Assembly (NCBI GenBank): GCA_030753015.1 | Contig: JASMDC010000017.1 | Coordinates: 8,662-72,661, forward strand | Direction: 5' to 3' | DNA: 64,000 nucleotides | Source: Candidatus Undinarchaeales archaeon | Lineage (GTDB): Archaea; SpSt-1190; JASMDC01 | Shown here: positions 15,329-56,029 of the stretch, piece after piece | How the letters are laid out: each line of letters begins with the position of its first letter | How positions within the stretch are numbered: position 1 is the first letter of the stretch | The notes under the pieces: generated by a model | What the model was told of the DNA's origin: nothing | The model's input: only the letters and a program-made list of their open reading frames with translations | The model's database searches: none | Program-made: the position numbers and the translations under genes

Positions 15329-18199
15329 TCACGCCGGAATGCACTGTCGCGGTAGTATCCAGGATCCTGGATTGCGTGCGAAGTACACGGCCCGAGTGGC
15401 ATTGTGCTCGAACAGTACACCGCTACGCTCGGTGATGACAGAAACGGTGAGCTCTTCCCATCCCTCCAATGCCTTATCGCAGAATCGGAACGGTTCAAGG
15501 TGGACGAGGTAGCCGCCGGGTGCCGATGTGACGTACAGCGACTCACGAACGGATCCGCCCAGATATGCCCGCACCGTCCGGGCAGCAGGGACTATATCGC
15601 GACCCGCCACGGACACAAGCACGTCCATGTCGAAGCCCCACGCCTGGAGCACTTGGTAGATGGGCTCCTCACGCGAGCCCGGTCGTACCTCTTCGATGGT
15701 CAGACGCGTCTCCCCGGGGGCTACGAGAGTGATATGGTCATTTCCGCTTCCCGTGCGGCCCAGACGTGCCACGCTGACATCCACGGTGGCGCGGCCAGCG
15801 CTCAGGGAGCCGGAGACCACGAGCGTCAGCACCCACTGACGCAAAGCGGGCACGTAACGCATGGAGAACACCCGCGCCTCCGTACCGCGGACGGAGGCCC
15901 GCACGTCATCGCGTGTAAGGGTTGTGACGGGAGTCCCGTCCCGGGCGTCCACCACGGAGACGTAGGCATGAAGGAACGCACCCTGTTGTGCTTCCTTGAG
16001 TGGGACAGTCCTGGGTTCGAGGGACTGTACGATCACCTCGTAGCCGACGGTCATGGAACCGTACCAGAGGGGGATGGAGGACCGTGCCGCCCCCAGCTCG
16101 CCGTCGTGGACTAATTTGAGGAACAGTGGGACGGACCCTGGTGAGAGCGTCCCTGCAAGGTGGGGCGGGAGCCGGGCACGGACCCGCCAGACCTCGTCCC
16201 GCCACGCCACCTCCACGTTCTCTGGAGGGAGCGGGAGGTCGCCCACGACAAGTGTGATCGAATCGGCCGAGATCCCTCTGGAGATCGGACGACTCTGCAG
16301 GCGCACCGAGAGGTCGAGGCTGACGACCACCTCGCCAGTGGCCAGGGTGTCCATGTCCAACGCTTCGGGCCGGACGTCCTCCACATGGACCGAGAGACCT
16401 TCCGGTGAGCAGCCATCCTCGCGACATATCTCGCCCGGACCGCAGACGTGACCGAACGAGGTCTCTTCGTCCGTGCACAGGCAATGGGACGGGCACAGTT
16501 CCCACGGGAGAAGGGCCGGGATCCGTTGGAGTCCAACGCGCGCCACACGCTCGCCGTCCTCCATCGCTACGACGAAAGGTGGTTCGTCCCCGCCGCCGGC
16601 GCATCCGCTGGCCGTGCACTGCTGACCGTGCTCGCACACGTCCGCCAACCGACCGTCCTCGGTGAAGCACGCGCACACCGGGTGGCGGTCGGAGGCCGGT
16701 ACGCACCGCCCGCCGGGGCCCATGCAGCGAAGTGTGATGTCCCTCGTGCCCAGTATTCCGTCGCGGCACAGGCGATCGTAATCGGTACCCCTGAGGCCGG
16801 TGGGCACCCACGGCTCGACCTCGAGCGGAACTGTGTGAACGCCCGATTCGTCGCCACGGAACGCCGTGAGACGGAGCTGGTAATGGCCGGGCGGGACCGT
16901 CTCGGGGAGCGTGAAGGCGATCTTACCGCAGGGATAGGTACGGCGGACGAGGATGCGCTCCTCCGTCCCGGTGTAGTTGATCAGCGCCACCTCGCACCGC
17001 TCCCCGGGTGTGTCAACCCACATGCGGACATCCTCGCCCACCATGTACGAGGGCTGCTCGAGAGTTACCGGCAGAGGCACCGACCGCCCGGGCTTAAGGA
17101 AATGGACAATGGTGTTGGCCGTGGCCGGGAGCCCCATAGGATTGAACATGGTGACCCGCACCACGTACTCTCCATCCTCGGACATTGTCGAGAGGGTGAG
17201 GGGGACGTAGAGGCAGGATGGAAGCCCGTACTGAGCGTTCACGACATCGCCCTCATGCAGCAGTTCGACAGCACAGCTCGACATGCCAGCTCCGGCGAAG
17301 GCGCCCACGACCATTGTCTCGCCGAGGAGGAAGGTGTCCGTCACACGACCGGCGCCATCACCCACTACAAGTGTCACGGGGAAGAGGCGCGGCCTGACGA
17401 GAACCTCGGCAGTGGCGTTGATCAGTTCGTTCGAATCCTTGAGCTGGAACAGGGTGTGGATGATCACAGGTGTGGCGGGGCATTGGCCCCCTTCGTACTC
17501 CTCGCATCCCATCCCCGCGGGGTCGAACTCGAGAAGGAACGACTCACAGGAAAAGCACGTGCGGGCTTGTCCAAGGGACTGACCGTCGGTGGAGAACAAT
17601 CCCCACACAGCGAACTCGACCTCATTGCCGAAGAAGAACGTCGCGATATCTCCTGCATAGTACTGATCGAGGTCGGTGAGCAGCTGGCCATTGATGATAC
17701 AGTCCTCGGTCCCGTCCTGACACTGGAGGGGGAACTCCAGGCCCACCCGCTCCTTGCGCGTGAGATGGCTGGTCGCCAGTCCCGTGGTGGGGAGGGTATA
17801 GGTGACGGTGCGTTCACCGACGTCCTCTGCCTCGTCCACGAGCAGGAACCCGCGGGGAGTGTAGGAGAACTTGAGGGTGGGTCGCAGCTCCTGGAGCGAG
17901 TACGAACGCGCCACCGTGAGCAAGGGCTCGACTGTGGTGAACCGAAGCGTGATCCTGTCACCTGTCACGTCGTAGGTGCACGCGCGTGTGTGCGCTGGCG
18001 CGAGCTGGGCGCAAGCGCGGTCGAGCACACCTGGCTTGAGTAGCGTGTCAATCAGCTCATCGCCCACGCCGTCGAGGGTTACGGTGATATGGTTGAGTGG
18101 TGAGCGTGATACATCGACCTCCTCGAGGATGGTGTCCACTACTACCGCTGTCGCGGGAGCGATCACCAGGAGCAAGGCCAGAAGGATGGCGGTCCTCAT
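15329..18199 (-). CDS. Large secreted multi-Ig/Cys-rich protein (paralog of 51445-54192)
   Basis: Signal peptide MRTAILLALLLVIAPATA; MG2/Ig-like repeats (LEQPSYMVGEDV, LPETVPPGHY); Cys-rich centre; ATGA overlap with upstream gene. Confidence 0.82.
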   Translation of the reverse strand: MRTAILLALLLVIAPATAVVVDTILEEVDVSRSPLNHITVTLDGVGDELIDTLLKPGVLDRACAQLAPAHTRACTYDVTGDRITLRFTTVEPLLTVARSYSLQELRPTLKFSYTPRGFLLVDEAEDVGERTVTYTLPTTGLATSHLTRKERVGLEFPLQCQDGTEDCIINGQLLTDLDQYYAGDIATFFFGNEVEFAVWGLFSTDGQSLGQARTCFSCESFLLEFDPAGMGCEEYEGGQCPATPVIIHTLFQLKDSNELINATAEVLVRPRLFPVTLVVGDGAGRVTDTFLLGETMVVGAFAGAGMSSCAVELLHEGDVVNAQYGLPSCLYVPLTLSTMSEDGEYVVRVTMFNPMGLPATANTIVHFLKPGRSVPLPVTLEQPSYMVGEDVRMWVDTPGERCEVALINYTGTEERILVRRTYPCGKIAFTLPETVPPGHYQLRLTAFRGDESGVHTVPLEVEPWVPTGLRGTDYDRLCRDGILGTRDITLRCMGPGGRCVPASDRHPVCACFTEDGRLADVCEHGQQCTASGCAGGGDEPPFVVAMEDGERVARVGLQRIPALLPWELCPSHCLCTDEETSFGHVCGPGEICREDGCSPEGLSVHVEDVRPEALDMDTLATGEVVVSLDLSVRLQSRPISRGISADSITLVVGDLPLPPENVEVAWRDEVWRVRARLPPHLAGTLSPGSVPLFLKLVHDGELGAARSSIPLWYGSMTVGYEVIVQSLEPRTVPLKEAQQGAFLHAYVSVVDARDGTPVTTLTRDDVRASVRGTEARVFSMRYVPALRQWVLTLVVSGSLSAGRATVDVSVARLGRTGSGNDHITLVAPGETRLTIEEVRPGSREEPIYQVLQAWGFDMDVLVSVAGRDIVPAARTVRAYLGGSVRESLYVTSAPGGYLVHLEPFRFCDKALEGWEELTVSVITERSGVLFEHNATRAVYFARNPGSWILPRQCIPA

Positions 18200-20256: not shown

Positions 20257-20304
20257 AAGGGGCTCCTCCAAGCTAAGGTTTAATTGTGTTTCTGGCAGGA
20301 GCCC

Positions 20305-20484: not shown

Positions 20485-20490
20485 GGGTGC

Positions 20491-22344: not shown

Positions 22345-22407
22345 AGGGGTAGAACTACCGTCACGACTTATAACACTTTTCGTTCGGTTCTCGATATGGG
22401 CGTGAGC

Positions 22408-22707: not shown

Positions 22708-22738
22708 ATTATGTAACCCCGCCTCCGCAACCGACACC

Positions 22739-22751: not shown

Positions 22752-22769
22752 CTATCATTTTGAAGTCAC

Positions 22770-39311: not shown

Positions 39312-39404
39312 GTGTGGGGAGGTGGCCCTCATCTATAAATCTTTGATGCCGGGCACCTCGCCCGCGGCATCCCTTTTTATGTTTTGCATGCCCCATGAAC
39401 GGAC

Positions 39405-40160
39405 ATGTCCGTGTTCGGCGAGGACCCCAATCTTACAAGGATGGACGCGCCCGCGCGGCCCCAGAACATTGACGAGAAGGTTCTCACCCACGTTCCGGGC
39501 CTCGACAAGCTCATGGGGGGCGGGTTCGAGCGCAACGCAACGATCTGCCTCTTCGGCGGGCCCGGCACCGGCAAGACCACGCTCGCCCTCCAGATCCTTC
39601 ACAATGCCGCCGTGACCGATGGCGAACCGGGACTCTATATCTCATTCGAGCAGTCGCGTGACGAGGTGTACCGGTTCATGAAGCGCATGGGATACGACCT
39701 GGAGGCGCTGGAGAAGAAAGGACTGTTCACCTTCAAGAACTATTACCCGACGCATCTCCAGAGCTTCATCAAGGAGGACCGGGGCCCTATCGAGAAGACG
39801 ATCGAGACCATCGGCGCCACCCTACTGGGGATCGACTCCCTCACTGCCCTGGCGATGGTTAGCGAAGGTGAAATGGAACGCCGGCGCACCTTCCTCAAGC
39901 TATTCGAGACGGTCAAGATCCACAACACGACCAGCATCTTCACCGTTGAAGAACACCTAACTCCCGACAATATCAAGAGCGCCTACGGCACCGAGTTCCT
40001 GGCCGATGGCGTGGTCAACCTCTACAACCTTCGCCGGGAATGGACACGTCGATTGGGGCTGGAGATCATTAAGATGCGGGGGGTCGCCTTTCCCCGCAAG
40101 ATCGTACCCTATACGATCGAGTCCAACGGTATCAACGTGTTCCCTGATCTCAACCTTTAA
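39405..40160 (+). CDS. KaiC/RAD55-like RecA-superfamily ATPase
   Basis: GLDKLMGGG, GGPGTGKT, YISFEQ, IDSL, EFLADGV, LEIIKMRG. Confidence 0.92.
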   Translation: MSVFGEDPNLTRMDAPARPQNIDEKVLTHVPGLDKLMGGGFERNATICLFGGPGTGKTTLALQILHNAAVTDGEPGLYISFEQSRDEVYRFMKRMGYDLEALEKKGLFTFKNYYPTHLQSFIKEDRGPIEKTIETIGATLLGIDSLTALAMVSEGEMERRRTFLKLFETVKIHNTTSIFTVEEHLTPDNIKSAYGTEFLADGVVNLYNLRREWTRRLGLEIIKMRGVAFPRKIVPYTIESNGINVFPDLNL

Positions 40161-45277: not shown

Positions 45278-46348
45278 TCACTCGTGGATCTTCTGGACCT
45301 GCTCCTTGGCACGGAGGCGTTTCATGTCGCGAACGACATCGGACAGTTCACGCACGTTCTCCGCGATCGTTGGGAAGATCCGCTGGAGCACACGCTGGAG
45401 CGCATTGATCTGGGCGCCCACGCCCTCAAGCTCCTTGCTGTACTCCTCCAAGCGCACGGTGGAGTGCTCCTGCAGTTCCACATAGCGCGACTTGAGCTCG
45501 GCCAGTTCCTCACGGATCTCGGCCATGCTCTCGTGCAGGTCGGTGCGGAAGGACTCGAGATCCTCGATGCGGACTTCAGCTTCCTTCCATTTCTCGTCCA
45601 CGATCTTCTCTACCAAGGCCTCGATATTTCGTCCACCGGGAGCTCCGGGGCCTCCCATGTCGGGTCCCATTCCCGGTGGTCCCATTCCTGGCGGTCCGCC
45701 CATTCCTGGCGGTCCGCCCATTCCTGGTGGCCCCATTCCCGGTGGCCCCATTCCCGGTGGTCCCATTCCTGGTGGTCCCATTCCTGGTGGTCCCATTCCT
45801 GGTGGCCCCATCCCAGGTGGTCCCATTCCTGGTGGCCCCATCCCAGGTGGTCCCATTCCTGGTGGTCCCATGTCCATCCCTGGTGGTCCCATCCCTGGTG
45901 GTCCCATTCCTGGTGGTCCCATGTCCATCCCCGGTGGTCCCATTCCTGGTGGTCCCATCCCTGGTGGCCCCATACCGGGGGGTCCCATTCCTGGCGGACC
46001 CATACCGGGCGGTCCCATATCCATTCCTGGCGGTCCCATCCCCGGCGGTCCCATCCCTGGTGGACCCATACCGGGCGGCCCCATTCCTGGTGGTCCTCCC
46101 GGGGGTCCCATTCCTGGGGGCCCCATCCCTGGTTGCCCCATACCTGGCGGTCCCATTCCTGGTGCTCCTCCCATACCCATTTTCATGTCTGCTTGCTGCA
46201 TTGCAGCTTGGATATCATCAGGTGTGAATCCCTCTTGAGAGAGGTTCTGAAAGATCACGTTGTCGGGCATTCCCTGCGAGCGCATGTTAACGACCTCGTT
46301 GACAGGAGGTCCCTTTTTCCCGAGGAATTTACCCAGAAGCGAGTCCAT
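45278..46348 (-). CDS. Protein with N-terminal helical domain, (MGPPG)n low-complexity tract and C-terminal coiled coil
   Basis: NMRSQGMPDNVIFQNLSQEGFTPDDI; about 27 exact MGPPG; IEALVEKIVDEKW then heptads. Confidence 0.85.
   Translation of the reverse strand: MDSLLGKFLGKKGPPVNEVVNMRSQGMPDNVIFQNLSQEGFTPDDIQAAMQQADMKMGMGGAPGMGPPGMGQPGMGPPGMGPPGGPPGMGPPGMGPPGMGPPGMGPPGMDMGPPGMGPPGMGPPGMGPPGMGPPGMGPPGMDMGPPGMGPPGMGPPGMDMGPPGMGPPGMGPPGMGPPGMGPPGMGPPGMGPPGMGPPGMGPPGMGPPGMGGPPGMGGPPGMGPPGMGPDMGGPGAPGGRNIEALVEKIVDEKWKEAEVRIEDLESFRTDLHESMAEIREELAELKSRYVELQEHSTVRLEEYSKELEGVGAQINALQRVLQRIFPTIAENVRELSDVVRDMKRLRAKEQVQKIHE
45655..46170 (-). repeat. Coding 15-bp tandem repeat (GGN ATG GGN CCN CCN)
   Basis: About 30 degenerate copies, varying mainly at synonymous positions. 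Confidence 0.9.
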
Positions 46349-46350
46349 GG

Positions 46351-46758
46351 TTACTTGCGCTCCTCCACGATATTTCTGGCGATTCGCTCAACATCGGCCG
46401 AGGTGAGGATGTTGGCGGGGTTGACGAGGTCGATGAAGCTCTCGAGCTCAAGAAGTTTCCCGCGAGGGGCGAACTTCTGCATCTCGACGCGCATGAGCTT
46501 GAGCTCCTTGATGATGCGACCGATCTGGTCGCGCAATTCTTCAGTGGCGATTGTGACGTTCTTGAGGTGACTGGCCGTCTTTTTGGACTCTTCCATGTAG
46601 TTGTTGTTGAGCATCTCAAGGTCGCCGGAAACCTTCTTGATCCGGTCCTCGAGCATACGGATGCGGCGGCTGTTGGAGATAGCTGTCTTGGACGCCTCGT
46701 TGATGGCGTTCATCAGCTGGGGGTCGGCTCCGCCCCCCATGAACCGGCCCATGTCTAA
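46351..46758 (-). CDS. Small coiled-coil protein, co-transcribed with the MGPPG gene
   Basis: SRRIRMLEDRI...LLELESFIDLVNP..ILTSADVERI; 2-nt gap to next gene; start uncertain by a few codons. Confidence 0.75.
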   Translation of the reverse strand, partial: LDMGRFMGGGADPQLMNAINEASKTAISNSRRIRMLEDRIKKVSGDLEMLNNNYMEESKKTASHLKNVTIATEELRDQIGRIIKELKLMRVEMQKFAPRGKLLELESFIDLVNPANILTSADVERIARNIVEERK

Positions 46759-46903
46759 TGGCACTGTGGCTATACCTCCTGCTACTCTTTTACTTTACAT
46801 TACTAATAAAGGTTAGCAGTTTCGATTCCTGGTGCCCGTTCCCGGTGCTTGTAGCCATCCTTTATAATACAGGAAGAACACTACTTCTACTAGAGGAGAG
46901 ACC

Positions 46904-49207
46904 ATGGTTCGTCCGGCGGTGGCCTGCTGCGAGTTCGAGCTCGTGGGCGAGGAGAGCGGTGAGGACACGATCCGCGTGAACTGTGTGGGGTGTCCCTACG
47001 GTTCATCCCTCGAGGACAGCGAGGTCTGCATGCTCAGGACCATGAACAAGCTCTCCCAGGTGCGGACCGCGAGCCGGGTGATCCTGGCCGAGCGTCGGCT
47101 CTATGAGTACGGTCAGAACCAGACCGCCATGCTCAAGGAGATCATTCGTGTTATCGAGCAGATCCGCGCCACGCCCCAGCTCTTCAGCCCGGCGATGATG
47201 GGCACCAACAACATCCGCTGCACTCGGTGCTTCCCGGCGCGCTTCCGCTACATGCAGACCATGGTCACCGACACCCTACGCCGGGACCCGGTCTCCGCCT
47301 ACGTGGACATGCGCAGGACCATCCGACACGAGGAGATGTACGTCAAGAAGGAGGTGGGCGAGTGCCAGGCATGCACGGCCTACTACGTCTCTCGGGTGCT
47401 CAAGGTGGTACTCAACCTGTTTGAGGGCCTTCACCTCATCCGGGGATTGAAGCCCTATCTCGAGGGCCACCGCGAGGGCGACCGGAGCATCTATCAGAAG
47501 GTGCTCAAGCCGGCCATCCGCCCCAACTTCATGCTCACGCGCATGATGGCGGACTTCCCTCAGGATGCAGAGGAGGTGGATAGTTACAAGGTACCGGGCG
47601 ACATCAAGGTCACCATCCTGAAGGTCCCCGGCGCGGTCCGCTTTATTTATCATACAATGCCTCCCGAGCTCAGGCTCTCCGAGGACGAGTTCAGTGTCCT
47701 CGATATGGCCCGGCAGGTATTGGCCGCCCACAATCCCGAGAGCGCCGAGCTGCTGGACCCGGAGCGCATGCGCACCACCTTCCTCGACATATCCAAGGAC
47801 CTCATCAGCGAGTTCGCGCTGCGCGAGCAGATCCAGTTCGACAGGGATCGGTTGGACGTGCTCTCCGAGGTGCTCACCCGCGAGACAACCGGGTACGGTA
47901 TCCTAGAGGTCATGCTCGCCGACGAACGGGCACAGGACCTGTCGGTGAACGCGCCGCCCGGGGAGCTGCCGGTGTTCATCTTTCACGCTGACTTCGAGGA
48001 CATGGAGTCCAACATCATCCCCACACGCGAGGAGGTGGAGAGCTGGGCCGCCCGCATGCGTCTATCGTCCGGCCGCCCCCTGGACCAGGCCAATCCCATT
48101 CTCGACACGTCCATCGAGCTGCCCTTCGCCCGCGCACGTGTGTGCGCAGTCACCCGCTCGTTGTCAGCCTATGGGCTGGCCTTCTCCATTCGGCGTCACC
48201 GGGACAATCCCTGGACCCATCCCCTGTTCATGAAGGTGAAGATGATCAACGCCCTCGGGTGTGGGCTGATGTCCTTCTTCATCGACGGCGCCCGCACCAT
48301 GCTCATATGCGGTACCCGCGGCTCGGGGAAGTCGGCGTTCCTCGGCTCGAACCTAATTGAGATCATGCGGCGTTATCGCATCATCACCATTGAGGACACC
48401 CTGGAGCTGCCTACGGTGTTCATGCGCAAGTTGGGGTTCAACATCCTCTCCATGAAGGTGGGCTCGGCGGTGGGCGGGGCATCCAGCTCCGAGCTGACGC
48501 CCGCTGACGGCATCCGGTCGTCCCTGCGTCTTGGCGACTCGGCCCTCATCCTGGGCGAGGTGCGCTCACTTGAGACGCTCGCACTTTACGAGGCCATGCG
48601 GGTCGGCGCGGCGGCCAACGTGGTGGCGGGGACCATCCACGGCGACAGCCCCTTCGGTGTGTTCGACCGTGTGGTCAACGACCTGGGGGTTCCCAAGACA
48701 TCTTTCAAGGCGACCGACATAATCGTGTTCGTACGCCCCATCCGCTCAGCGGACGGGCTGCACAAGCTTCGGCGCGTCACCGAGATCGTGGAGGTTGGCA
48801 AGGAATGGGTGGACGATCCCGAGCGGGAGAACGCCTTTCATACCCTCATGGAGTACGACACCAAGAAGGATGAGATGATTCCCACCTCCACCCTCATCGA
48901 CGGCGAGTCGGAGGCCATCTCGGCCATATCCGGAACGGTCAAGGAGTGGGTGGGCAACTTCGATGCCGTATGGGCTAACATCGAGATGCGCGCCGAGTAC
49001 AAGCGACGTATTCTCGACTACGTGACCAGGGCGAAGCTGCCACAGCTTCTCGAGGCGCCTTTCGTGGTGAGATGCAACGACATGTTCCACATCCTAGTGG
49101 GCGAGGTGACCGACGAGCTGGGGAGCGCTGTCCCGGACGAGGTGCTCGGACGCTGGACCCTGTGGCTCCGCAAGGCGATCAAGGAGGAGCGGACCCGAAA
49201 GAAGTGA
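46904..49207 (+). CDS. Type IV pilus/T2SS assembly ATPase (VirB11/CpaF/ArlI family) with Cys-rich N-terminus
   Basis: GTRGSGKS, ITIEDTLEL, LRLGDSALILGEVR, GTIHG; GAGGAG RBS; CxxC pairs in N-terminal domain. Confidence 0.93.
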   Translation: MVRPAVACCEFELVGEESGEDTIRVNCVGCPYGSSLEDSEVCMLRTMNKLSQVRTASRVILAERRLYEYGQNQTAMLKEIIRVIEQIRATPQLFSPAMMGTNNIRCTRCFPARFRYMQTMVTDTLRRDPVSAYVDMRRTIRHEEMYVKKEVGECQACTAYYVSRVLKVVLNLFEGLHLIRGLKPYLEGHREGDRSIYQKVLKPAIRPNFMLTRMMADFPQDAEEVDSYKVPGDIKVTILKVPGAVRFIYHTMPPELRLSEDEFSVLDMARQVLAAHNPESAELLDPERMRTTFLDISKDLISEFALREQIQFDRDRLDVLSEVLTRETTGYGILEVMLADERAQDLSVNAPPGELPVFIFHADFEDMESNIIPTREEVESWAARMRLSSGRPLDQANPILDTSIELPFARARVCAVTRSLSAYGLAFSIRRHRDNPWTHPLFMKVKMINALGCGLMSFFIDGARTMLICGTRGSGKSAFLGSNLIEIMRRYRIITIEDTLELPTVFMRKLGFNILSMKVGSAVGGASSSELTPADGIRSSLRLGDSALILGEVRSLETLALYEAMRVGAAANVVAGTIHGDSPFGVFDRVVNDLGVPKTSFKATDIIVFVRPIRSADGLHKLRRVTEIVEVGKEWVDDPERENAFHTLMEYDTKKDEMIPTSTLIDGESEAISAISGTVKEWVGNFDAVWANIEMRAEYKRRILDYVTRAKLPQLLEAPFVVRCNDMFHILVGEVTDELGSAVPDEVLGRWTLWLRKAIKEERTRKK

Positions 49208-49211
49208 TGCC

Positions 49212-51392
49212 ATGGCGGACCCACCGAAGCCTGAAGGAAGGACCATCGGGGCGGGTTCGTACTCCATCAACATGAACGAGCTCGATCAGGTCTACAACAA
49301 GTACAAGCAAGGTCCCCAGGTCCCTTTGGGCTGGGGCGCTGGTCAGCAGCAGAACACGGGGTTCGAGCGGTCTCGCTCCTTCCAGATCTTCAAGGAGGAG
49401 GAGTCCGTGCACATGGACAATCCCATCGAGAACGCCTACCGGATGGCCGGGCAGTACATCCCCATCGAGGCGCCGCCCGAGATCGCTACCTTCCTCAACA
49501 ACAGCCTGAAGATGTCCGGATTGCGGATCACGGCCAACGACGTCATGGCCCTGGCCATCGGGATCCTTATGGTAACGTTCGTCATCGGGTTCGCCATCAT
49601 CGCCGTGCCCTTCATGTGCAAGGACACGGGCATAGGCACGAAGTGCTACTCTTTGGGCGACCAGTCGGGGCTTGCAGGCATCACCGCGATCATGGCCCCC
49701 ATCGTTTTTGCTATAGCCATCATCCTCTACCCCATGTTCCGCACCACGGTGGCCAAGGTGCATATCGCAGGTACAGCGCCGCTGGCCGTGCTGTATATAG
49801 TCATCTACCTGCGCTCCTCGCCGAGCCTCGAGTCGGCGGTGGCGTTCTCCGCAAAGAACGTGACCGGTCCGCTGGGCGACGAGCTCAAGCATCTCCAGTG
49901 GGGGGTGGCGACGCGCGAGTTCCCTGACACCCAGCAGGCCCTGGTGCAGTTCAGCGAGAAGGTGCAGGACTGGGCGCCGGGCATCTCCGATGCCTTCTAT
50001 CTCATAGCCGGTTCGACCCAGCAGCCTACGCCTGAGAAGCGGGTAGAGATGCTCGATAAAGCGGTCAATGGCGCCCTCACGTCCACCCGCCACACCATGC
50101 AGCAGTTCGGTCGCTCGCTCCAGATGCCCGCCATCGTGGTGAACGCCCTGGGTATCCTGCTACCGGTCATGGGGCTCGTGATGGCCCCCATCGTCACGAT
50201 CATGCTCTCTGACGGCGGAGGTGTGGATATAACCCTCGCTGTGCTCTATAATGTCATCCTACCGGCGATCATCCTGATGATCATCTACGTCCTGGGGAGC
50301 CGTCGTCCGGGCTCGTTCTCCAGTGTCGACGTGTCAAAGCATCCCGACGCCCCCAAGCCGGGCTGCTACAGGCTCTCGATGGGTAGCTCGACCTATGACA
50401 TCCCACTGCTCCCCATCTCACTGCTGATATTTGTCCTGGGCGCGGCCTACAGCGGTGCCTTCCTTATCAACGAGTACGTGCTCGGATCCGGCGCTGACGC
50501 GACCGCGCTCCAGGATGCGACCCGGGCCTTCCAGACCATGCCCATCATCGTATGCTCAGGTTTGGCCATCGGTATCTACGGGATCGGCATGTCCTCGCAG
50601 CGCATGTCCATCCGCAACCACATCAAGGACACTGAGAAGGAGTTCTCCTCGGCCCTATACCAACTTGGGAACATCATGAACCAGGGCCAACCCTTCGAGA
50701 TCGCCGTCACTCGTGCGGGGGAGATCATGTCCACGTCGGTCATGCGGCCGTTCCTGTTGTCCATCGCCCGCAACATCCAGCAGCTGGGCATGCCCTTGCA
50801 CCAGGCCGTGTACGATCCTGAGTACGGCGCCCTGCGATACTGCCCTTCAGACCTGGTGGCCAACGTGCTGGAGATCGTCTTGGATTCCACCAAGCGGGGA
50901 GTGCGCATTGCGGCCACGACCACCATGAACATCGCCACCTACCTGGACAACATCGAGGAGGTGTCCACCGAGATCGAGGGCCTGCTCTCCGAGTCCATGT
51001 CCAGCATGAAGTTCCAGGCCTACCTCCTCGCCCCCGTGGTGTGCGGAATCATCGTCGGGCTCTCGCAGATGATCACGGGTATCCTTGCAGGTGTTGGGCA
51101 GAAGGTGGACGAAGGCGGCCTGGGAGGTCAGATGTCGGGCGGCGGGATGGGTGGTGCCTTCAGCGCCGAGAACGCAGTGCCCCCCGACCGGCTTCAGCTC
51201 ATCGTCGGCATCTACATCGTCCAGCTACTGTCCATCCTCGGCTACTTCTGTGCCCTCCTAGAGAGCGGGCCCAATGACACGGTGGCCATGTACCAGAGCA
51301 TAGGGCAGACGGTGCTCATAGGTACTATTGTGTACAGCTCCGTCTGCATCGTCACCACACTGGTGTTCGCCGGGATGGCCACGTTCGTTTAG
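49212..51392 (+). CDS. Type IV pilus platform membrane protein (T2SS F/TadBC/ArlJ-like)
   Basis: Follows the ATPase; multi-TM with two T2SSF-like cytoplasmic domains (LESAV...GPLGDEL; EFSSALYQLG...G.PFE.A). Confidence 0.85.
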   Translation: MADPPKPEGRTIGAGSYSINMNELDQVYNKYKQGPQVPLGWGAGQQQNTGFERSRSFQIFKEEESVHMDNPIENAYRMAGQYIPIEAPPEIATFLNNSLKMSGLRITANDVMALAIGILMVTFVIGFAIIAVPFMCKDTGIGTKCYSLGDQSGLAGITAIMAPIVFAIAIILYPMFRTTVAKVHIAGTAPLAVLYIVIYLRSSPSLESAVAFSAKNVTGPLGDELKHLQWGVATREFPDTQQALVQFSEKVQDWAPGISDAFYLIAGSTQQPTPEKRVEMLDKAVNGALTSTRHTMQQFGRSLQMPAIVVNALGILLPVMGLVMAPIVTIMLSDGGGVDITLAVLYNVILPAIILMIIYVLGSRRPGSFSSVDVSKHPDAPKPGCYRLSMGSSTYDIPLLPISLLIFVLGAAYSGAFLINEYVLGSGADATALQDATRAFQTMPIIVCSGLAIGIYGIGMSSQRMSIRNHIKDTEKEFSSALYQLGNIMNQGQPFEIAVTRAGEIMSTSVMRPFLLSIARNIQQLGMPLHQAVYDPEYGALRYCPSDLVANVLEIVLDSTKRGVRIAATTTMNIATYLDNIEEVSTEIEGLLSESMSSMKFQAYLLAPVVCGIIVGLSQMITGILAGVGQKVDEGGLGGQMSGGGMGGAFSAENAVPPDRLQLIVGIYIVQLLSILGYFCALLESGPNDTVAMYQSIGQTVLIGTIVYSSVCIVTTLVFAGMATFV

Positions 51393-51444
51393 GGCGGCCT
51401 CGGCGCAGGATTTATATATTGCACGCGCCTCCTCTTCTATCGAG

Positions 51445-54192
51445 ATGGTGGACTATCGGGGGAGGCTCGCGGCATTGCTCCTTGCCCTCATACTCCTGCT
51501 CGTACCGAGCCTGGGCGCTCAGGCGGAGCGCATCATCGAGGAGGTGGAAATGCGCCACCTGGACATGATGTCCATCCGGGCACGCTACGTCCTTCCCGCC
51601 GAGGCCATGGAGCGGCTCACCGCCACGGCCCTGGCTGATATCTGTCGCCGTCTACCGTTCGATGACTGCACCTATACGGTGGAGGAGGGTGCTCGTACCG
51701 TCATCTTCGAGGCGACTGGCGTCCCCGATATTGACCTCATTGACGCTACCAAGGTGGGCGCTGAGACTATACTCACCTTCCGTCACCGGTACATTCCCCT
51801 CCAATCGCGGTTGGGCTCCATCGGCGGGCAGGAGCAGCGGCTCACTATCCGCTATCCCACCCACGCCCTGGCTTATGAGGATGTACCGAGTCGGGAGATG
51901 GAGAACACATTCGTAATATCAGGAGTGGCTCGACCAGTGGAGTGGTTCGCCCGGGAGGACCGGGTCCCCGTGGGTGAACCCATCGAGGTCGACATGGGTG
52001 CGGGCGAGTTCTGCTTCGTAGGCCTCTATATCGAGGGCCGGATGGTCGGCCGTGCCATGGCGCTGGGATGCGGCCCGATCATGCTCCCCACCGACTCCGC
52101 ACTGGTGGGCAAGGATGCCGATGTCCGGCTCGTGAACTACGCAATGGGTGCCCTGCGGTACTCCGAGCTCCCGCCCGGTAGTCTTGGCGTGCTACCCCCG
52201 GAGTTCCCCATCAGGCTCCAGGTCACCCCGTACGAGGTCCCATCCGGAGCACCGTTCTACCTGCAGATCTTCACCGATGAACCCTTGACCGGGTGCCACA
52301 TCTCCCTGAACGACAGGGGCGGCCATACCCTCATGACAAGCGAGTTCGAGGAGTGCGAGAACATCCTCCTGGGCACGAGCACCGCGTGGCGCGCCGGTGA
52401 GCATTATATCAAGGTCAAGGCCTACGCGGGGGCCCGGACGGGTGAGGCCGCCACCAACTTCAACCTCGTGGACAAGGTAGGGTTCCGCAAGGGACCCGAG
52501 CTCAACCTTGAGCAGAACGTGTACACCGCCGGTGAGCAGGTGCGATTGTGGGGCGAGGACCTGGGCGGCTCGGCCTACTGCAGCGCACGCCTGGAGACAG
52601 CCGATGGCATCCTCGTGGAGGAGACCAACTCCCTGGGGTGCGAGAAACTCCATATGACCCTGGACGAGGAGCTGCCGGCGGGCAACTACGTGGTCCGCAC
52701 CGACCTCATCGAGCGTGGACGGCTCACGGGCCGAGCCAGCTTCCCGGTCCAGGTGCGCGCATGGAATCCTGAGCCAGGATCCCCTGTCGCCCGACTGTGC
52801 CCAGGCGGCGCCTTCCGTCTCCGCGAGGAGCGACTGCCTTGTCTCCGCTCCGGTAACGCCTGCACACCGACCTCCCTGGAAGTGCCCCTCTGCCTGTGCT
52901 TCGGTTCCGGCGGGAAGATCGCTGATGTGTGCCACTTCGGCGAGACCTGCGGTCGTGTCAAGTGCGAGGAGCGGGCCGTCAGTCCCTACATGATCGTGTA
53001 TCACGAGGGCCAGTGTCTGGCCCGCCGGGGGACCCATGCCCTTGCCTGCGCCCGCCAGGGCGAGATGTGCACCGAGGCGTGCGTGTGCCTCTCCGATGAC
53101 GGCAATCCCATCGCTCGCTGCGTGGGCGGGGAGCTGTGCACCGAGCGCGGGTGCGAGGAGCCGCGGCTGTTGTTACGCGTGGATTCCGTCGAACCGGACA
53201 TCGTGCGCGAGAACGAGGTGCGCGACGGCATCATGATCAAGGTAACAGGTGTCCTGAAGTACGACGGCAAGGTCATCAGGTCGGCGGACGTCCAGGTCAA
53301 AGCCTACCTGGCGGGGGAGGAGCACGTCGGGATGATCGAGGATACCGTGGACGGGGCGCGTGTGATAATCACCGTGCCAGTGACGGGCGAGATGCTACCG
53401 GGAGAGTATCAGCTCACTCTGCAGTTCAGCCGCGGGGACGACCGTGTGATGGTCCAGAAGCCGTTCACCGTATGGTATGCCGACGATGTCCTCACCATCC
53501 AGCAGGTCCAGTTCCAGAAGAGCATCGCCCGGGAGGACCTGGCAGCCGGCAGCACGTCCAAGATGCGCGTCAAGCTCCTCGACCAGGGCGGTCGGGAGAT
53601 GCTCGGCGTGCCCGTGGATTCCATGGACCTGGACATCAACGACGTGACCATCAACTCACTGGCCGCCAAGTACGAGTCAGGTTCCTACATAGTCGTGGGG
53701 AGCCTCGAGGCCGACCTACCCGCAGGTCCCAGACACGTGAAGTTCGCCGTCAACCACCTGGGGCGCCAGGGCGAGCTCACCGGTACTCTGAACGTTCTTA
53801 ATGAGCCACCGCTGTCCATGTCCGTCCTCGACGTGGAGCCCGGGAAGAAAGAGAAGCCCATCCTGTTCATCCTCCTCTCCGGGCTCGGATTCGACCTGGA
53901 CCTGTACCTTAACATCGGTGGTGTCGAGCAGATCAACAAAGAGAACACGAAGGTGACGATCAACGGGCAGGACATCACCCGTCTCATGTCGTATGCCGTG
54001 AACACGAACAAAGGCGTCCGCATGCACATGACGTCGGTGAGCCTCTGCCCCGAGGTACCGCCCCAGGGCGCCAAGCTGCTGCTCGAGGTGACCCTCTCAC
54101 GGGACAGTGAGAGCGTGTCCGACCGGATCGTGCTCCACACCAGGGGCAATCCCGGTGACTGGTCCAACATGGGGGTGGCCGGCTGTGCATAG
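51445..54192 (+). CDS. Large secreted multi-Ig/Cys-rich protein (paralog of 15329-18199)
   Basis: Signal peptide MVDYRGRLAALLLALILLL; LEQNVYTAGEQV, LDEELPAGNY; TTTATATAT 25 nt upstream. Confidence 0.82.
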   Translation: MVDYRGRLAALLLALILLLVPSLGAQAERIIEEVEMRHLDMMSIRARYVLPAEAMERLTATALADICRRLPFDDCTYTVEEGARTVIFEATGVPDIDLIDATKVGAETILTFRHRYIPLQSRLGSIGGQEQRLTIRYPTHALAYEDVPSREMENTFVISGVARPVEWFAREDRVPVGEPIEVDMGAGEFCFVGLYIEGRMVGRAMALGCGPIMLPTDSALVGKDADVRLVNYAMGALRYSELPPGSLGVLPPEFPIRLQVTPYEVPSGAPFYLQIFTDEPLTGCHISLNDRGGHTLMTSEFEECENILLGTSTAWRAGEHYIKVKAYAGARTGEAATNFNLVDKVGFRKGPELNLEQNVYTAGEQVRLWGEDLGGSAYCSARLETADGILVEETNSLGCEKLHMTLDEELPAGNYVVRTDLIERGRLTGRASFPVQVRAWNPEPGSPVARLCPGGAFRLREERLPCLRSGNACTPTSLEVPLCLCFGSGGKIADVCHFGETCGRVKCEERAVSPYMIVYHEGQCLARRGTHALACARQGEMCTEACVCLSDDGNPIARCVGGELCTERGCEEPRLLLRVDSVEPDIVRENEVRDGIMIKVTGVLKYDGKVIRSADVQVKAYLAGEEHVGMIEDTVDGARVIITVPVTGEMLPGEYQLTLQFSRGDDRVMVQKPFTVWYADDVLTIQQVQFQKSIAREDLAAGSTSKMRVKLLDQGGREMLGVPVDSMDLDINDVTINSLAAKYESGSYIVVGSLEADLPAGPRHVKFAVNHLGRQGELTGTLNVLNEPPLSMSVLDVEPGKKEKPILFILLSGLGFDLDLYLNIGGVEQINKENTKVTINGQDITRLMSYAVNTNKGVRMHMTSVSLCPEVPPQGAKLLLEVTLSRDSESVSDRIVLHTRGNPGDWSNMGVAGCA

Positions 54193-56029
54193 ACGACGGG
54201 GCCAGATGGCGCTGATCGGCCTGGCCGCCGTAGCACTGGTCGTGCTCGTGGTGACCTACATCATGCTCTCAGGCCGCTCTGTCGAGCACAGGGCCGCTAT
54301 CAAGGAGGGAGAGTTGGAGGACCTTGTTTCCGAGTTCGATAACGAGCAGCGGTACATGGAGAAGGTGCTATCGGAGGCGATCAACGGCGCGATCTCCGAG
54401 ATGGTCTCCCATGGCGGGTACACTGAAGAGTCGCTTCCCAAGCTCAACCGTCATGGTGTCCCCTTCTTCTTTTACAAGGGGAACATTGTCAACATCCCGA
54501 CGCTCAACCTCATGAACCAGATGCTCGCCCAGGAGGTCGAGCGCCGGGTCAACAGCCAGCTCGACAGGCACCGGGAGGAGGTCAAGGGTCGTCGGGACCA
54601 GTACGAGATAGGTTACCCTTCCATAAAGGCCAACCTCTCGGAGGAGTTCGCTATCGCAGGCATGACGATCCCTGTCTCGGTGATGCGTGAAGGTGACAAG
54701 GTACGATCCACGATGAATTTCGAGAAGATTCTCCCCTCAAAGCTGGGTAACTTCCGCAAGCTCGCAGAGGCCTACATAGTTGAGTACGAGCAGATCCGCA
54801 TCGTGGAGGAAAGCCTCATCTCGGGTATGATCCAGGACGATCGGGTTTGGGAGCCGCCGGGCCGGATGATGCACTCCGTGTCCTGTGACGATCCCCCCCA
54901 CAAGACCTGGTACGATCTCTACAGCCCTATCCAGGAGAACGCCGAGGTAGCGGTTGCGCTGGAGCAGGTGCGACTGCGCGCAGTGTACGGGCGCTCGAAC
55001 CTCCAGTGGGGTCTGGGCTTCAACGTCGCCGACGTGGAGATGGCTATCGTCGCGAATATCGGTAACCTTGACTGGTCGGGACGGGACTGGTCAACGGACT
55101 CGTACCCCGATAAGGTCTTCCTGGTCCCCCAGAAGTTCCCGCCCATGAGCGCCTCGACCGATATCTGCTACTCGGTCTACACTTGTGCGTACGATATCAC
55201 CTTCCCAATCCTGGTCACTGCCATGGACCTCACACCGACCGGCCGGCTGGTGAGCAGCGAGGGTCAGGACGTTTCCCAGACGCCGGAATTCCGGTTCTAC
55301 ATCCAGCCCTATCTGGGCCATTACGATGACGGGCGGCCCAACAAGTTCGCTGTGGACGAGTCCGTGGGCGAGTTCCAGTTCCGGGACAACCAGTGCATGG
55401 GCTCATGCTCCATCGGGCTCAAGCTCGACGGTACCAAGGAGGGCCAGATCTGGCTCGACGACTGTAACTATAACTATCCCATGGGCCAGGTGTCCGACCT
55501 GGACTTCGTCAAGGACGGCATAGCTTGTGGTCTGCGCACTCTGGTCATAGAGAGCAACGATCCGGTGAAGGCCCGTGTCGTGGAACGCATCAACATCCAC
55601 GAGGGTTTCAAGGCCACCTATGTGATCCCCGACTTCGCCACGGTCGCCGGAACTGTGAAGGAGAACTACAGGGTTCACTGCACCGGCACGAGCCGTACCA
55701 AGGACGAGGTCCGGCCCCTGAAGGAGACCGGGGGCGGGCTCTTCGTCGACCTCGTACCGCTGGAGCCCAGGCTGGGCAGTGTTGTCACACAACCCGTGGA
55801 CGACGACGGCACCTACCGATTCGAGAACGTCAATCCCGGTAACTACATCATCATCGCCCGACCATTGGTCGATAAGAGCGGTAGCCCAGCGTACGCCCTT
55901 GAGCCAGAGGCGGTGGTCCAGAAGGTGAACGAGCTGGACAACGAGGGTATCGACGTTACCATGGAGCCGCTGAACATCGTCCGTGTGGGAACGGCCTGGC
56001 GCCGCGTGTCCGACGTCCAGGAGTGCTAG
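54185..56029 (+). CDS. Giant pilin-like protein with class III signal peptide (paralog of 18196-20256)
   Basis: GTG 54185 with GGGGTGG upstream: MHRRRGQ|MALIGLAAVALVVLVV; C-term VDDDGTYRFENVNPGNY. Confidence 0.78.
   Translation: MHRRRGQMALIGLAAVALVVLVVTYIMLSGRSVEHRAAIKEGELEDLVSEFDNEQRYMEKVLSEAINGAISEMVSHGGYTEESLPKLNRHGVPFFFYKGNIVNIPTLNLMNQMLAQEVERRVNSQLDRHREEVKGRRDQYEIGYPSIKANLSEEFAIAGMTIPVSVMREGDKVRSTMNFEKILPSKLGNFRKLAEAYIVEYEQIRIVEESLISGMIQDDRVWEPPGRMMHSVSCDDPPHKTWYDLYSPIQENAEVAVALEQVRLRAVYGRSNLQWGLGFNVADVEMAIVANIGNLDWSGRDWSTDSYPDKVFLVPQKFPPMSASTDICYSVYTCAYDITFPILVTAMDLTPTGRLVSSEGQDVSQTPEFRFYIQPYLGHYDDGRPNKFAVDESVGEFQFRDNQCMGSCSIGLKLDGTKEGQIWLDDCNYNYPMGQVSDLDFVKDGIACGLRTLVIESNDPVKARVVERINIHEGFKATYVIPDFATVAGTVKENYRVHCTGTSRTKDEVRPLKETGGGLFVDLVPLEPRLGSVVTQPVDDDGTYRFENVNPGNYIIIARPLVDKSGSPAYALEPEAVVQKVNELDNEGIDVTMEPLNIVRVGTAWRRVSDVQEC

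Follow-up and report, generated by a model that had tools for sequence, protein, structure and literature searches.

A Two-Gene Module for a Large Pilin-Like Protein and a Secreted Ig-Like Rod Protein, Present in About 19 Versions in a Marine Undinarchaeales Genome, Probably Encodes Varied Cell-Surface Complexes

Genes of the Window

The window, that is, the whole stretch of 64,000 nucleotides that was analysed, belongs to the 3.85 Mb genome of a marine archaeon. The genes considered here are listed by position, strand and product.

9050..12610, minus strand: Cys-rich (62 Cys) membrane-anchored giant protein, 1186 aa, with Pfam TSP3 repeats and an FGE-sulfatase-like domain
15329..18199, minus strand: Ig/Cys-rich rod protein, copy 1, 956 aa from ATG 18199; clade I
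18196..20271, minus strand: pilin-like modular protein, copy 1, 691 aa from TTG 20271; clade I
45278..46764, minus strand: 137-aa coiled-coil protein and 356-aa (GPPGM)n-repeat protein, transcribed divergently from the motor genes, which they accompany in relatives
46904..49207, plus strand: type IV filament ATPase, 767 aa; Pfam T2SSE 52 bits (cut-off 24.9)
49212..51392, plus strand: polytopic membrane protein, 726 aa, probable platform of the TadC/FlaJ/GspF type
51445..54192, plus strand: Ig/Cys-rich rod protein, copy 2, 915 aa from ATG 51445; clade III
54185..56029, plus strand: pilin-like modular protein, copy 2, 614 aa from GTG 54185 (alternative GTG 54155)

The start of the pilin-like gene of copy 1 is placed here at TTG 20271, and was placed at 20256 in the first-pass annotation. 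The open reading frames aligned were P0001 (15329-18208, minus strand) and P0003 (51328-54192, plus strand) for the Ig/Cys proteins, and P0002 (18196-20271, minus strand) and P0004 (54107-56029, plus strand) for the pilin-like proteins. The first-pass annotation had described a duplicated module with swapped gene order, and the alignments bear this out. By BLASTP, P0001 and P0003 share 24% identity over 659 columns (E 1e-44), and the Cys-rich motifs quoted for them do align (query 479-525); P0002 and P0004 share 24% identity over 705 columns (E 4e-30), with the motif YDIQFPLEV/YDITFPILV aligned. The RGQ followed by a hydrophobic stretch is present in both pilin-like proteins and the ending NPGxW...C in both Ig proteins, as had been stated; both Ig proteins also carry a Sec-type signal.

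The reported translational overlap exists at both junctions. That of copy 1 is an ATGA overlap (pilin-like stop 18198-18196, Ig ATG 18199), and in copy 2 the Ig stop TAG lies at 54190-54192 and the pilin-like gene starts at GTG 54185 (8-nt overlap) or 54155 (38-nt overlap). In copy 1, on the minus strand, the pilin-like gene precedes the Ig gene; in copy 2, on the plus strand, the Ig gene comes first. Copy 2 does stand behind a pilus motor, 3' of the T2SSE ATPase and the polytopic membrane protein and on the same strand.

Signal Sequence and Predicted Structure

The motif [KR]GQ, placed after a leader of about 5-17 residues and followed by about 20 hydrophobic residues, was found in 16 of the 19 pilin-like paralogs of the genome; the other three have a non-canonical start (RAQ, RGT, none). 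The consensus of 19 distant DPANN-type relatives is KRGQ, with the Q invariant. A six-frame pattern scan of the whole genome gave 29 ORFs, 16 of them from this family and about ten others encoding small (155-363 aa) pilin-like proteins. The class III-type signal noticed at first reading is thus conserved among the paralogs, in the distant relatives and in the small pilin-like proteins of the genome, and the search for a prepilin peptidase gave four Peptidase_A24 homologs above the Pfam cut-off. In copy 1 the N-terminus reads ...NSRG, followed by Q and the hydrophobic helix, and the protein ends in GCAA; in copy 2 the leader is MHRRRG, followed likewise by Q and the helix.

The AlphaFold2 model of the copy 2 pilin-like protein (pLDDT 82) shows a single helix, residues 5-75, running into an alpha/beta domain, after which come two beta-sandwich domains and a C-terminal Cys. 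Foldseek and VIA-align matches of this model were confined to the C-terminal beta domains. Residues 485-597 match a carboxypeptidase D domain of the transthyretin-like type (Z 9.3, rmsd 1.8, 79-81 residues), and the S. acidocaldarius protein SlaB (8qox_B) gives a match to the same domain (Z 8.7, rmsd 2.4, 88 residues). The pilin-like proteins are three to four times the size of ordinary pilins. A 2653-aa protein with a Sec signal holds the same globular domain without a class III signal; therefore, the domain does not need the pilin helix.

These structural data bear on a reading in which the helix, uncleaved or merely cleaved, is a plain membrane anchor, and the pairs, at no time part of a type IV filament, build envelope or adhesin complexes with a stalk and a canopy. 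In function these would resemble SlaB with the SlaA that it holds, the anchor being N-terminal instead. The SlaB match, the size far beyond that of pilins and the presence of the globular domain in a Sec-secreted giant are all in keeping with it. However, the SlaB match concerns a common domain with many equal matches, and a plain anchor would not need [KR]GQ to be kept before the helix, as it is in 16/19 paralogs and, for the Q, in all 19 relatives; moreover, the small pilin-like proteins of the genome carry the same motif. On balance, we consider the plain anchor unlikely, although it deserves to be kept in view.

No homology outside the signal region was detectable between the pilin-like family and the small pilins of the genome, and none was found with the pilin-like proteins 3' of the motor in genomes of the same class. 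Neither the pilin-like nor the Ig protein was assigned to a family by Pfam and NCBIfam; in Pfam, the window proteins had no match at E values up to 0.1 and the 19 relatives none up to 1. Profile searches of PDB sequences gave nothing below E 0.003, and the hit at that level concerned only the C-terminal repeat. In the ESM Atlas, uncharacterised proteins of Nanobdellota make up the nearest clusters. The atlas also gave a cluster of DUF7286 (score 0.77, a lead only), which was not supported by the Pfam scans.

The copy 2 Ig protein starts with a Sec-type signal peptide, contains around seven beta-sandwich domains and a central Cys-rich region, and ends in GNPGDW...GCA. Its AlphaFold2 model (pLDDT 81) is all-beta except for the signal helix, which is the only helix of the protein, so that the Ig partner has no anchor of its own. 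Foldseek searches with the rod model returned generic multi-Ig matches only. An intermolecular disulfide through the C-terminal Cys was set aside: the conserved Cys are even in number in both proteins (8 and 22), and internal pairing would therefore be enough.

Copy Number and Co-duplication

Further copies were counted in the genome, giving 19 full genes of each family and 18 adjacent pairs on 15 contigs. The two genes overlap by 1-38 nt in 16 of the 18 pairs and are separated by gaps of 1-2 nt in the other two. Every strongly supported clade is common to the pilin-like and Ig trees, and the Mantel r was 0.956 overall and 0.79 inside the 12-pair clade, values that 0/5000 permutations equalled or exceeded in either case. 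The congruence of the two trees implies that the pairs were duplicated as units. The obligate heterodimer that the first-pass annotation had proposed stands, on this evidence, as a genetic unit; at the protein level the binding of the partners is presumed.

The modules form three clades, and the window copies belong to the two most distant of them: the copy 1 pair groups with C22a and C22b in clade I, and the copy 2 pair is sister to the C36 pair in clade III. The idea of two interchangeable variants was wrong, as there are about 19 modules. Tandem arrangements occur elsewhere in the genome, Ig-Pil-x-x-Ig in C76 and Pil-Ig-Pil in C39, and the gene order switched at least twice on the tree; the order swap in the window thus needs no special meaning. 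Across clades, the Ig proteins can be aligned only from about residue 210-400 on. It is in the first, N-terminal third of the rod that the versions diverge most, a hint that their targets differ. Such a number of versions also weighs on the plain anchor, since nineteen paralogous pairs would not be expected of a single wall lattice.

Motor Locus Beside Copy 2

The ATPase scored 106 bits against FlaI and 102 bits against TadA in NCBIfam, both far under the cut-offs, and is one of five T2SSE ATPases above the cut-off in the genome. A search with its N-terminal 330 aa found one matching copy per genome in 134 of the 299 other archaeal genomes, among them 15/15 of the same class; it is thus the single-copy ATPase that DPANN-type archaea conserve. 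The platform candidate had no match in Pfam or NCBIfam; its nearest ESM Atlas clusters (feature score 0.96-0.97, structure TM 0.84) are archaeal proteins named 'GspF domain-containing' or with T2SSF in 16-22% of members, which is taken as a lead, and its place beside the ATPase is conserved in relatives. For the two divergently transcribed proteins, look-alike N-termini and the same arrangement were found upstream of the orthologous ATPase in the genomes G003, G005 and G009.

The copy 2 pair starts 53 nt past the platform gene on the same strand, and the ATPase, platform, Ig and pilin-like genes probably form one operon with the ATPase first. In four small-genome relatives, small pilin-like genes fill the slot behind the motor that the copy 2 pair occupies here. 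In metatranscriptomes, 12 short exact contigs (three runs, two studies) fell on the ATPase and on the Ig and pilin-like genes of copy 2, with much of the operon uncovered; this is a weak hint of expression of the motor locus genes, with DNA carry-over a possible source.

The position of copy 2 in a probable motor operon, in the slot of pilin-like genes of relatives, speaks against the plain anchor, and the 17 of 18 pairs that have no adjoining motor speak for it. Among those 17, the C40 pair has another ATPase at a distance of about 14 kb, and the others have unrelated housekeeping genes in their flanks. The related genes of five DPANN genomes are at least 40 kb from the orthologous ATPase. 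With a motor beside one pair in 18 and at such distances in the DPANN genomes, the proposal that the complex was made for the type IV filament has its basis in the copy 2 locus and was otherwise not supported.

The same data concern the tip or adhesin complex that had been proposed, now with many alternative tips instead of two, in which a heterodimer would cap a long type IV pilus in the manner of minor pilins and PilY1. A class III protein joined to a large Sec-secreted non-pilin mirrors that arrangement, copy 2 is probably in a motor operon, and passages of PMC13705601 and PMC4858521 describe archaeal type IV filament loci as often holding large multi-Ig or PilY-like adhesins. However, a place in a filament would have to be presumed for both proteins, a PilY1-type domain (VWA, beta-propeller) is absent from both window proteins in Pfam, in the models and in Foldseek, and 19 tips for five motors would require a selection mechanism, nothing of which kind was seen. 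A tip adhesin is therefore judged distinctly improbable.

Neighbouring Giant Proteins

Secreted giant proteins of 1100-2350 aa directly flank 12 of the 18 pairs, with domains that include M23, SLT, Kazal, FG-GAP and TSP3, hence adhesion, protease-inhibitor or murein-cutting domains. The giants of group A share a conserved Cys-knot C-terminus. The giant encoded at 9050-12610 lies two genes downstream of copy 1 and groups in BLAST with the giants of C22a, C22b and C38, and its relatives directly flank the two other clade I pairs. A bacterial-type SecA, acquired by the genus, is encoded directly downstream of one module.

In a further reading, the class III proteins are the pseudopilins of a machine like that of type II secretion, by which the folded, disulfide-rich Ig and giant proteins would be driven across the envelope and not retained. 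The Ig partners and most giants are without an anchor, and the acquired SecA hints at unusual export demands. Nevertheless, pseudopilins are small, no secretin-like or other conduit component was seen, and a dedicated pseudopilin for each cargo, maintained through 18 duplications, is unlike the known type II systems, so that very little probability is given to an export device.

Distribution of the Wider Family

The N-terminal module of the pilin-like protein (profile positions 1-345) constitutes an unannotated family, present in 21 of 299 other archaeal genomes; the link to this wider family was given by hhalign of A1 against A4 (probability 99.9, E 1e-36, 497 columns). The orthologous ATPase is found in all 21 of these genomes and also in 113 genomes without the family. 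Short forms of 247-364 aa match profile positions 3-210 only, and one relative bears a VWA domain at its C-terminal end. At seven DPANN loci, the family gene abuts a gene for a beta-rich protein of 700-1700 aa with a Sec signal, in either order.

The Ig family was not found by sequence outside this genus among 301 genomes, and it gave no match to the partner proteins of the DPANN loci; the likeness of those partners thus rests on architecture and not on homology. A search for related loci with the single protein P0004 gave one locus. In metagenome scans, the query P0035 had no match, and P0031 matched only a 2-kb contig, with one weak match besides. The DNA itself occurs in seawater metagenomes from several studies. 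No description of the pilin-like family or of the large-genome Undinarchaeota lineage was found in the literature searched, which took in passages from the main text of PMC13705601.

Proposed Role of the Modules

The set of modules probably represents varied cell-surface adhesion or display complexes. More specifically, the pilin-like proteins are proposed to be prepilin-processed modular anchors, each of which would keep its cognate Ig rod at the membrane or at a filament, a reading to which we give a probability of about 0.5. What we infer of cleavage, partner binding, motor use, surface location and function can be put as follows.

Each pair would be a two-protein cell-surface module. Prepilin peptidase would cut the 600-700 aa partner after [KR]G, leaving an N-terminal hydrophobic helix by which the protein may be retained in the membrane, or may be lifted by a type IV machine to build a stalk or a short filament. 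For this machine, the ATPase and platform of the conserved motor locus at copy 2 are the likely candidates. The rod partner of 900-1000 aa, Sec-secreted, disulfide-rich, made of Ig-like domains and without an anchor, would give an adhesion or display scaffold together with the beta-sandwich C-terminal part of its cognate pilin-like protein. This scaffold may often be associated with the adjoining giant secreted protein, bearing binding or cell-wall-cutting domains. Duplication of whole modules would then have given about 19 versions, perhaps for different targets.

A bolder extension of the anchor-plus-rod reading, for which we see only a slim chance, makes the approximately 19 modules exchangeable heads on a single contact apparatus: the conserved DPANN-type filament motor would load prepilin-processed anchors, each with its own Ig rod and giant effector, and the archaeon could thereby grip and open bacterial or other cells. 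The giant effectors would include some with peptidoglycan-cutting M23 and SLT domains. If true, contact-dependent predation or parasitism would have a pilus-based counterpart in archaea, and it would show the role of a DPANN surface cassette before genome reduction, in a large-genome marine relative of the ultrasmall Undinarchaeota.

DPANN-type attachment to other cells and their exploitation are poorly understood, and the pilin-like genes are scattered and unannotated. The genome offers a natural experiment, in which a class III signal family gained further domains by fusion, became bound to one secreted partner and reached about 19 copies, one of which still stands at the conserved filament motor of the lineage. 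Should the anchor-plus-rod reading be right, it would widen the idea of the archaeal type IV filament machinery as a general display platform for large functional proteins, and it would also provide defined protein pairs for specificity tests. The pilin-like N-domain family merits a family definition in any case.

Comparison with Known Systems

Epd/EppA-type pilins (Pfam Class_IIIsignal/DUF361) carry the motif QxSxExxxL. The pilin-like family has in common with them a short signal ending in Gly, the +1 Gln and the hydrophobic helix. It differs in that the +5 Glu is absent (hydrophobic or Gly instead) and there is no DUF361 or other Pfam match, and also in its length of 600-700 aa, three added domains, about 19 copies and a fixed secreted partner that duplicates with it. 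For M. maripaludis, passages of PMC3875500 report signals of 5-13 residues with Gly as the last one, a conserved +1 Gln regarded as necessary for processing by EppA, and some Epd members much larger than the major pilin, with genes scattered in the genome. Most DPANN pilins are put in 'system 1', that is, the Epd type, in passages of a survey of type IV filaments (PMC13705601).

Large Ig-fold or PilY-like adhesins encoded with motors and pilins (arCOG03511, arCOG07037, arCOG05616 and arCOG03508) and systems of Thermoproteales with multiple conserved cysteines are described in passages of PMC13705601 and PMC4858521. Compared by description, the rod resembles these adhesins in being large, secreted and of Ig fold; unlike them, it goes with one pilin-like gene instead of with a motor locus, and by sequence it was found only in the genus.

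Among bacterial systems, the minor pilins FimU-PilVWX with PilY1, and PilB/PilC of Streptococcus sanguinis, provide prepilin-type proteins bearing or holding a large adhesive module. The likeness is one of architecture, and one DPANN relative of the pilin-like family ends in a VWA domain. In contrast to the PilY1 systems, the pilin module here is putative, the partner is an Ig rod and not a propeller, and Pfam gave no match to VWA, beta-propeller or DUF2341.

The Sulfolobus bindosome consists of sugar-binding proteins with a class III signal, assembled by BasEF. By analogy, the modules may likewise involve large non-pilin class III proteins anchored at the surface by a type IV filament-like machine without a long pilus. 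They differ in lacking any substrate-binding protein family in Pfam or NCBIfam, and the window ATPase scored 43 bits against a cut-off of 1000 for the BasE model. The bindosome theme is taken up in the abstract of PMC13705601.

Finally, the SlaA/SlaB S-layer is encoded by one or a few gene pairs, and its stalk has a C-terminal membrane anchor and a coiled coil; the present system comprises 18 pairs with an N-terminal anchor and has one common domain in common with it (Z 8.7).

Window genes

The window holds two pairs of adjacent genes, each pair coding for a large, Cys-rich Ig protein with a Sec signal and a pilin-like (RGQ) protein with a class III-type signal. The four genes agree with their description in the first-pass annotation, and they are listed here with the type IV filament motor found upstream of copy 2.

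Features of the two window copies and of the motor locus
15329-18208, minus strand: Ig copy 1 (P0001), 959 aa by longest ORF
18196-20271, minus strand: pilin-like copy 1 (P0002), 691 aa; the P0001 gene comes next
46904-49207, plus strand: filament ATPase, T2SSE 52 bits
49212-51392, plus strand: polytopic protein, 726 aa; closest in the Atlas to clusters of archaeal platform proteins of GspF/T2SSF type
51328-54192, plus strand: Ig copy 2 (P0003), 915 aa from ATG at 51445; the P0004 gene comes next
54107-56029, plus strand: pilin-like copy 2 (P0004), 614 aa from GTG at 54185

The proposed paralogy of both pairs was confirmed by BLASTP, with 24% identity for the Ig proteins (E 1e-44) and 24% for the RGQ proteins (E 4e-30), and the motifs quoted in the first-pass annotation align in register between the copies. 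Both junctions overlap, as described there, by ATGA in copy 1 and by 8 or 38 nt in copy 2, according to the GTG chosen. Pfam and NCBIfam contain a family for neither the window Ig nor the window RGQ proteins, the sole traces being weak CarboxypepD_reg/SdrD_B matches at the RGQ C-termini.

Between Ig copy 1 and a 251-aa protein (12679-13434; membrane helix, coiled coil, C-terminal zinc ribbon), a 703-aa ORF (13435-15546, minus strand) matches the eukaryote-type ubiquitin-conjugating domain UQ_con (81 bits), RWD and UEV, and carries several tandem repeats of a '...YP.SPP...' UBC/RWD-like unit. The stretch 35865-40160 encodes, in divergent orientation, a KaiC-type ATPase (166 bits) and a 1155-aa protein with DUF835 at its end (89 bits). 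Archaeal signalling modules typically combine two such genes, which have no relation to the pilin-like and Ig proteins.

Copy number and co-duplication

A search of the genome found 26 places with P0004 and 22 with P0003. Copies were resolved by tblastn and ORF extraction into 19 full-length pilin-like and 19 full-length Ig genes, which form 18 adjacent pairs on 15 contigs. The 19th pilin-like gene (contig C85) has an Ig neighbour cut by the contig end, and another contig end (C80) holds an Ig fragment. The same-genus genome G001 gave 23 matches to the pilin-like family profile. The window copies are thus just two of 18 pairs, and not the two variants of the first-pass annotation. Gene order is Ig followed by pilin-like in 14 pairs and the reverse in four; with starts as chosen, junctions overlap by 1-38 nt in 16 of the 18 pairs and have gaps of 1-2 nt in two.

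Quick maximum-likelihood trees were built for the 18 paired pilin-like proteins and for their 18 Ig partners, and every strongly supported grouping is common to both. Clade I comprises window copy 1, C22a and C22b, and clade II C40 with C32 and C38, in both trees; clade III comprises 12 pairs, including window copy 2 with C36, C30 with C39a, and C41 with C21. The window copies come from the two most distant clades. Patristic distances of the two families are correlated (r 0.956 overall, r 0.79 within clade III), and 0 of 5000 label permutations reached the observed r, overall or within clade III, such tests being inflated by relatedness. The pair is the unit of duplication, as is plain from the shared topology. 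Obligate pairing is accordingly upheld by the adjacency of the 18 pairs, their overlapping junctions and the congruence of the trees.

The swapped order (pilin-like followed by Ig) is found in clade I and, separately, in C40, and therefore changed at least twice. A swap results when a module is duplicated in tandem and one flank is then lost, as illustrated by C76 (Ig-Pil-x-x-Ig), where a second Ig gene lies two small ORFs past a pair, and C39 (Pil-Ig-Pil), where a partial pilin-like gene across an assembly gap precedes a pair. An IS605 OrfB/TnpB-type gene (L019:674-1852, C117) and a split phage-integrase gene (L030:915-1991, C76) were located within a few kb of two modules; these mobile elements might have helped to disperse the pairs.

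Signal and candidate processing machinery

The proposed class III-type signal was predicted from sequence in 16 of the 19 pilin-like proteins, as a leader of ~5-17 residues ending in [KR]G, followed by Q and ~20 hydrophobic residues; the other three have RAQ, RGT or no such motif. A six-frame genome scan requiring a start codon, the motif [KR]G[QA] and a hydrophobic stretch retrieved 29 ORFs, 16 of them from the large pilin-like family and ~10 coding for pilin-like proteins of 155-363 aa, including four clustered on C84 and another that neighbours an ATPase gene on C63. Since both classes are found by the same scan, the signal of the large proteins is the same as that of the ordinary pilin candidates of the genome. 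Prepilin peptidase candidates were located genome-wide as four Peptidase_A24 homologs over the Pfam cut-off, and five T2SSE ATPases exceed their cut-off, with a sixth below it. Pilins of Methanococcus maripaludis are described with signals of 5-13 residues ending in Gly, a conserved Gln at +1, on which processing by EppA may depend, and a +5 Glu (PMC3875500); the latter is missing in the pilin-like family.

Motor locus

Among the 18 pairs, only window copy 2 adjoins the motor. The Ig gene begins 53 nt after that of the 726-aa polytopic protein, whose identification as a GspF/T2SSF-type platform is a lead only, and the overlapping pilin-like gene comes next. Of 299 other archaeal genomes sampled, 134 contain a single match to the N-terminal 330 residues of the ATPase; nearly all of these are small, and all 15 of the same class are among them, so that the protein represents the conserved filament ATPase of the lineage. 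The locus is syntenic in four same-class genomes, with two divergent upstream genes also kept in three of them. In all four, the platform gene is followed by genes for small-to-medium pilin-like proteins with undetectable homology to the 600-700 aa family; in the genome studied here the Ig-pilin-like pair takes this slot.

Divergent from the ATPase, two proteins are encoded at 45278-46764 (minus strand): one of 356 aa, in which a long (GPPGM)n repeat is combined with a coiled coil, and a coiled-coil protein of 137 aa. Proteins with look-alike N-termini occupy the same position in three same-class genomes, and because of this conservation they may be unrecognised motor parts or regulators.

Neighbouring genes

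For 12 of the 18 pairs, the immediate neighbour is a gene of 1100-2350 aa; in window copy 1 a giant lies two genes away (9050-12610). A Sec-type signal is present in most giants; a conserved Cys-knot at the C-terminus is common to one group, and TSP3 repeats to another, which accompanies clade I. Pfam searches of 15 large neighbours detected Peptidase_M23 (two), SLT (one), Kazal (two), FG-GAP (one), TPR (one), TSP3 with a PA-type calcium-binding domain (two) and a SecA, and nothing in six. A 2653-aa Sec-signal protein (G000:C39:25875-33836; L021:6575-14533) contains the pilin-like globular domain (P0004 query residues 84-508) internally, without the class III signal and with a Cys-knot end as in one group of giants. 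Among 84 other flanking genes scanned, all were unrelated housekeeping genes except those for DUF7343 helix-turn-helix proteins beside three modules, which are possible local regulators.

DUF7343 proteins, 337-365 aa, with winged-helix ends
L024:11090-12106: beside module C29b
L025:511-1605: beside module C36
L029:11109-12119: beside module C32

The Peptidase_M23 domains belong to giant, Cys-rich Sec-signal proteins beside pairs (L028:1-6033, C21:806-7132; L026:10668-16331, C41:18467-24130), one of which also has the SLT lytic transglycosylase domain. Both are enzymes cutting bacterial peptidoglycan, here encoded by an archaeon. The giant-Ig-pilin-like module of C41 has directly downstream of it, in the same orientation, the gene for a full-length SecA of bacterial type, 823 aa long (G000:C41:11278-13749; L026:3479-5950, minus strand), with SecA_DEAD (405 bits), PP-bind, P-loop and Wing/Scaffold domains. 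Archaea are not expected to encode SecA; two are present in the same-genus genome, and 59 other archaeal genomes searched gave nothing above a 35-bit partial match.

Predicted structures

The pilin-like model (22 aligned sequences, pLDDT 82, pTM 0.70) has four parts: a helix (5-75), an alpha/beta domain to ~380, a Cys-containing beta-sandwich and a last domain. The latter, which fills the match lists instead of the N-domain, resembles in this prediction a transthyretin-like domain, that of carboxypeptidase D (Z 9.3; 79-81 residues superposed at rmsd 1.8), with about equal matches to CnaB-type domains of Gram-positive pilins and a SlaB domain. Past its signal helix, the Ig model (pLDDT 81, from 19 sequences) consists of beta structure only, with a central Cys-rich stretch, and matches only generic Ig/macroglobulin chains at TM ~0.1 (CD109, DSCAM, Aureispira grappling-hook protein, complement C3). 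The pilin-like family has eight (nearly) invariant cysteines and the Ig family 22, C-terminal ones included, so internal disulfides would suffice. Between clades, the Ig rods align from ~residue 210-400 onward only; variation is thus concentrated in the N-terminal third, which presumably faces the target.

Wider pilin-like family

Against 1.84 billion representatives, the pilin-like profile gave 8352 matches at E <=0.001, most of them caused by giant proteins that carry the C-terminal repeat domain. Family members or their fragments account for the 30 single-stretch matches at E <=1e-61, and many of these probably represent paralogs from within the genus. Further proteins of 600-750 aa match at profile positions 5-345 only (E 1e-16 to 1e-21), start with KRGQ or KKGQ and a hydrophobic helix, and share the motifs HGGY, PYW.Y.G and Y.FTYD..YPV. 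They align to the window family (hhalign probability 99.9, E 1e-36, 497 columns) and lack a Pfam family, except one with a terminal VWA domain.

The profile of this further set matched 21 of 299 other archaeal genomes, which all measure 0.7-1.6 Mb; the 15 same-class genomes gave no match. Short forms (247-364 aa) match this profile at positions 3-210 only, in keeping with a modular build. All 21 also have the orthologous ATPase, with the wider-family genes at least 40 kb from it in five genomes checked. At seven DPANN loci, the gene abuts or overlaps, in either order, that of a 700-1700 aa Sec-signal protein with weak fn3/Big-type Pfam matches only, often with a 250-280 aa membrane protein in front. 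Of 301 genomes searched, only those of this genus yielded the Ig family, which does not match these DPANN partners.

Genome and distribution

The window is archaeal, with genes for CDP-archaeol synthase, LonB, a KaiC-like ATPase and a radical-SAM enzyme of wyosine synthesis. The genome comprises 3.85 Mb in 117 contigs (the window lying on C26), with GC ~61%, completeness 98.9% and contamination 5%. Its classified relatives have genomes several times smaller (0.6-1.2 Mb in 15 same-class genomes); either a lineage known for its reduced genomes also has a large-genome branch, represented here, or, given the contamination, the placement needs checking. A relative's locus is 95% identical to P0004. 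DNA of 46800-56100 is present in seawater and marine metagenomes of 11 studies, some possibly its source. Short exact contigs on the ATPase, Ig copy 2 and pilin-like copy 2 in three metatranscriptome runs from two studies are a weak hint of expression, DNA carry-over being possible.

Interpretation and comparison with known systems

The data best fit a two-protein surface module, in which a prepilin-type modular anchor would hold at the surface a cognate secreted Ig rod without its own anchor, often teamed with a giant secreted protein and diversified by whole-module duplication. From the earlier proposal of an obligate heterodimeric tip or adhesin complex of the type IV filament, the signal, the coupling and the obligate gene pairing stand, and the two variants do not; a pilus tip and physical binding of the two proteins stay hypothetical. 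The anchor may remain membrane-bound, build a short stalk or become part of a long filament. Use of the filament machinery is favoured by the probable operon at copy 2 and by the signal shared with ordinary pilin candidates; caution is advised because the other 17 pairs are dispersed, the protein is large and its globular domain occurs in a Sec-secreted giant.

No description of the pilin-like and Ig families or of their expansion was found in the literature searched. A 2026 survey of archaeal type IV filaments (PMC13705601) describes DPANN with adjacent ATPase and platform and scattered pilins, mostly of Epd-like system 1, reports large multi-Ig or PilY-like adhesins in many loci, and considers that class III-signal binding proteins may functionalise the machinery; large adhesin-like and Cys-rich components were also noted in several archaeal systems (Makarova et al. 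2016, PMC4858521). The modules are of a known kind, class III signal proteins with adhesin-like partners of archaeal type IV filament systems, and stand out by the scale of their expansion, the unannotated yet widespread N-terminal module and the marine archaeal host with its comparatively large genome.
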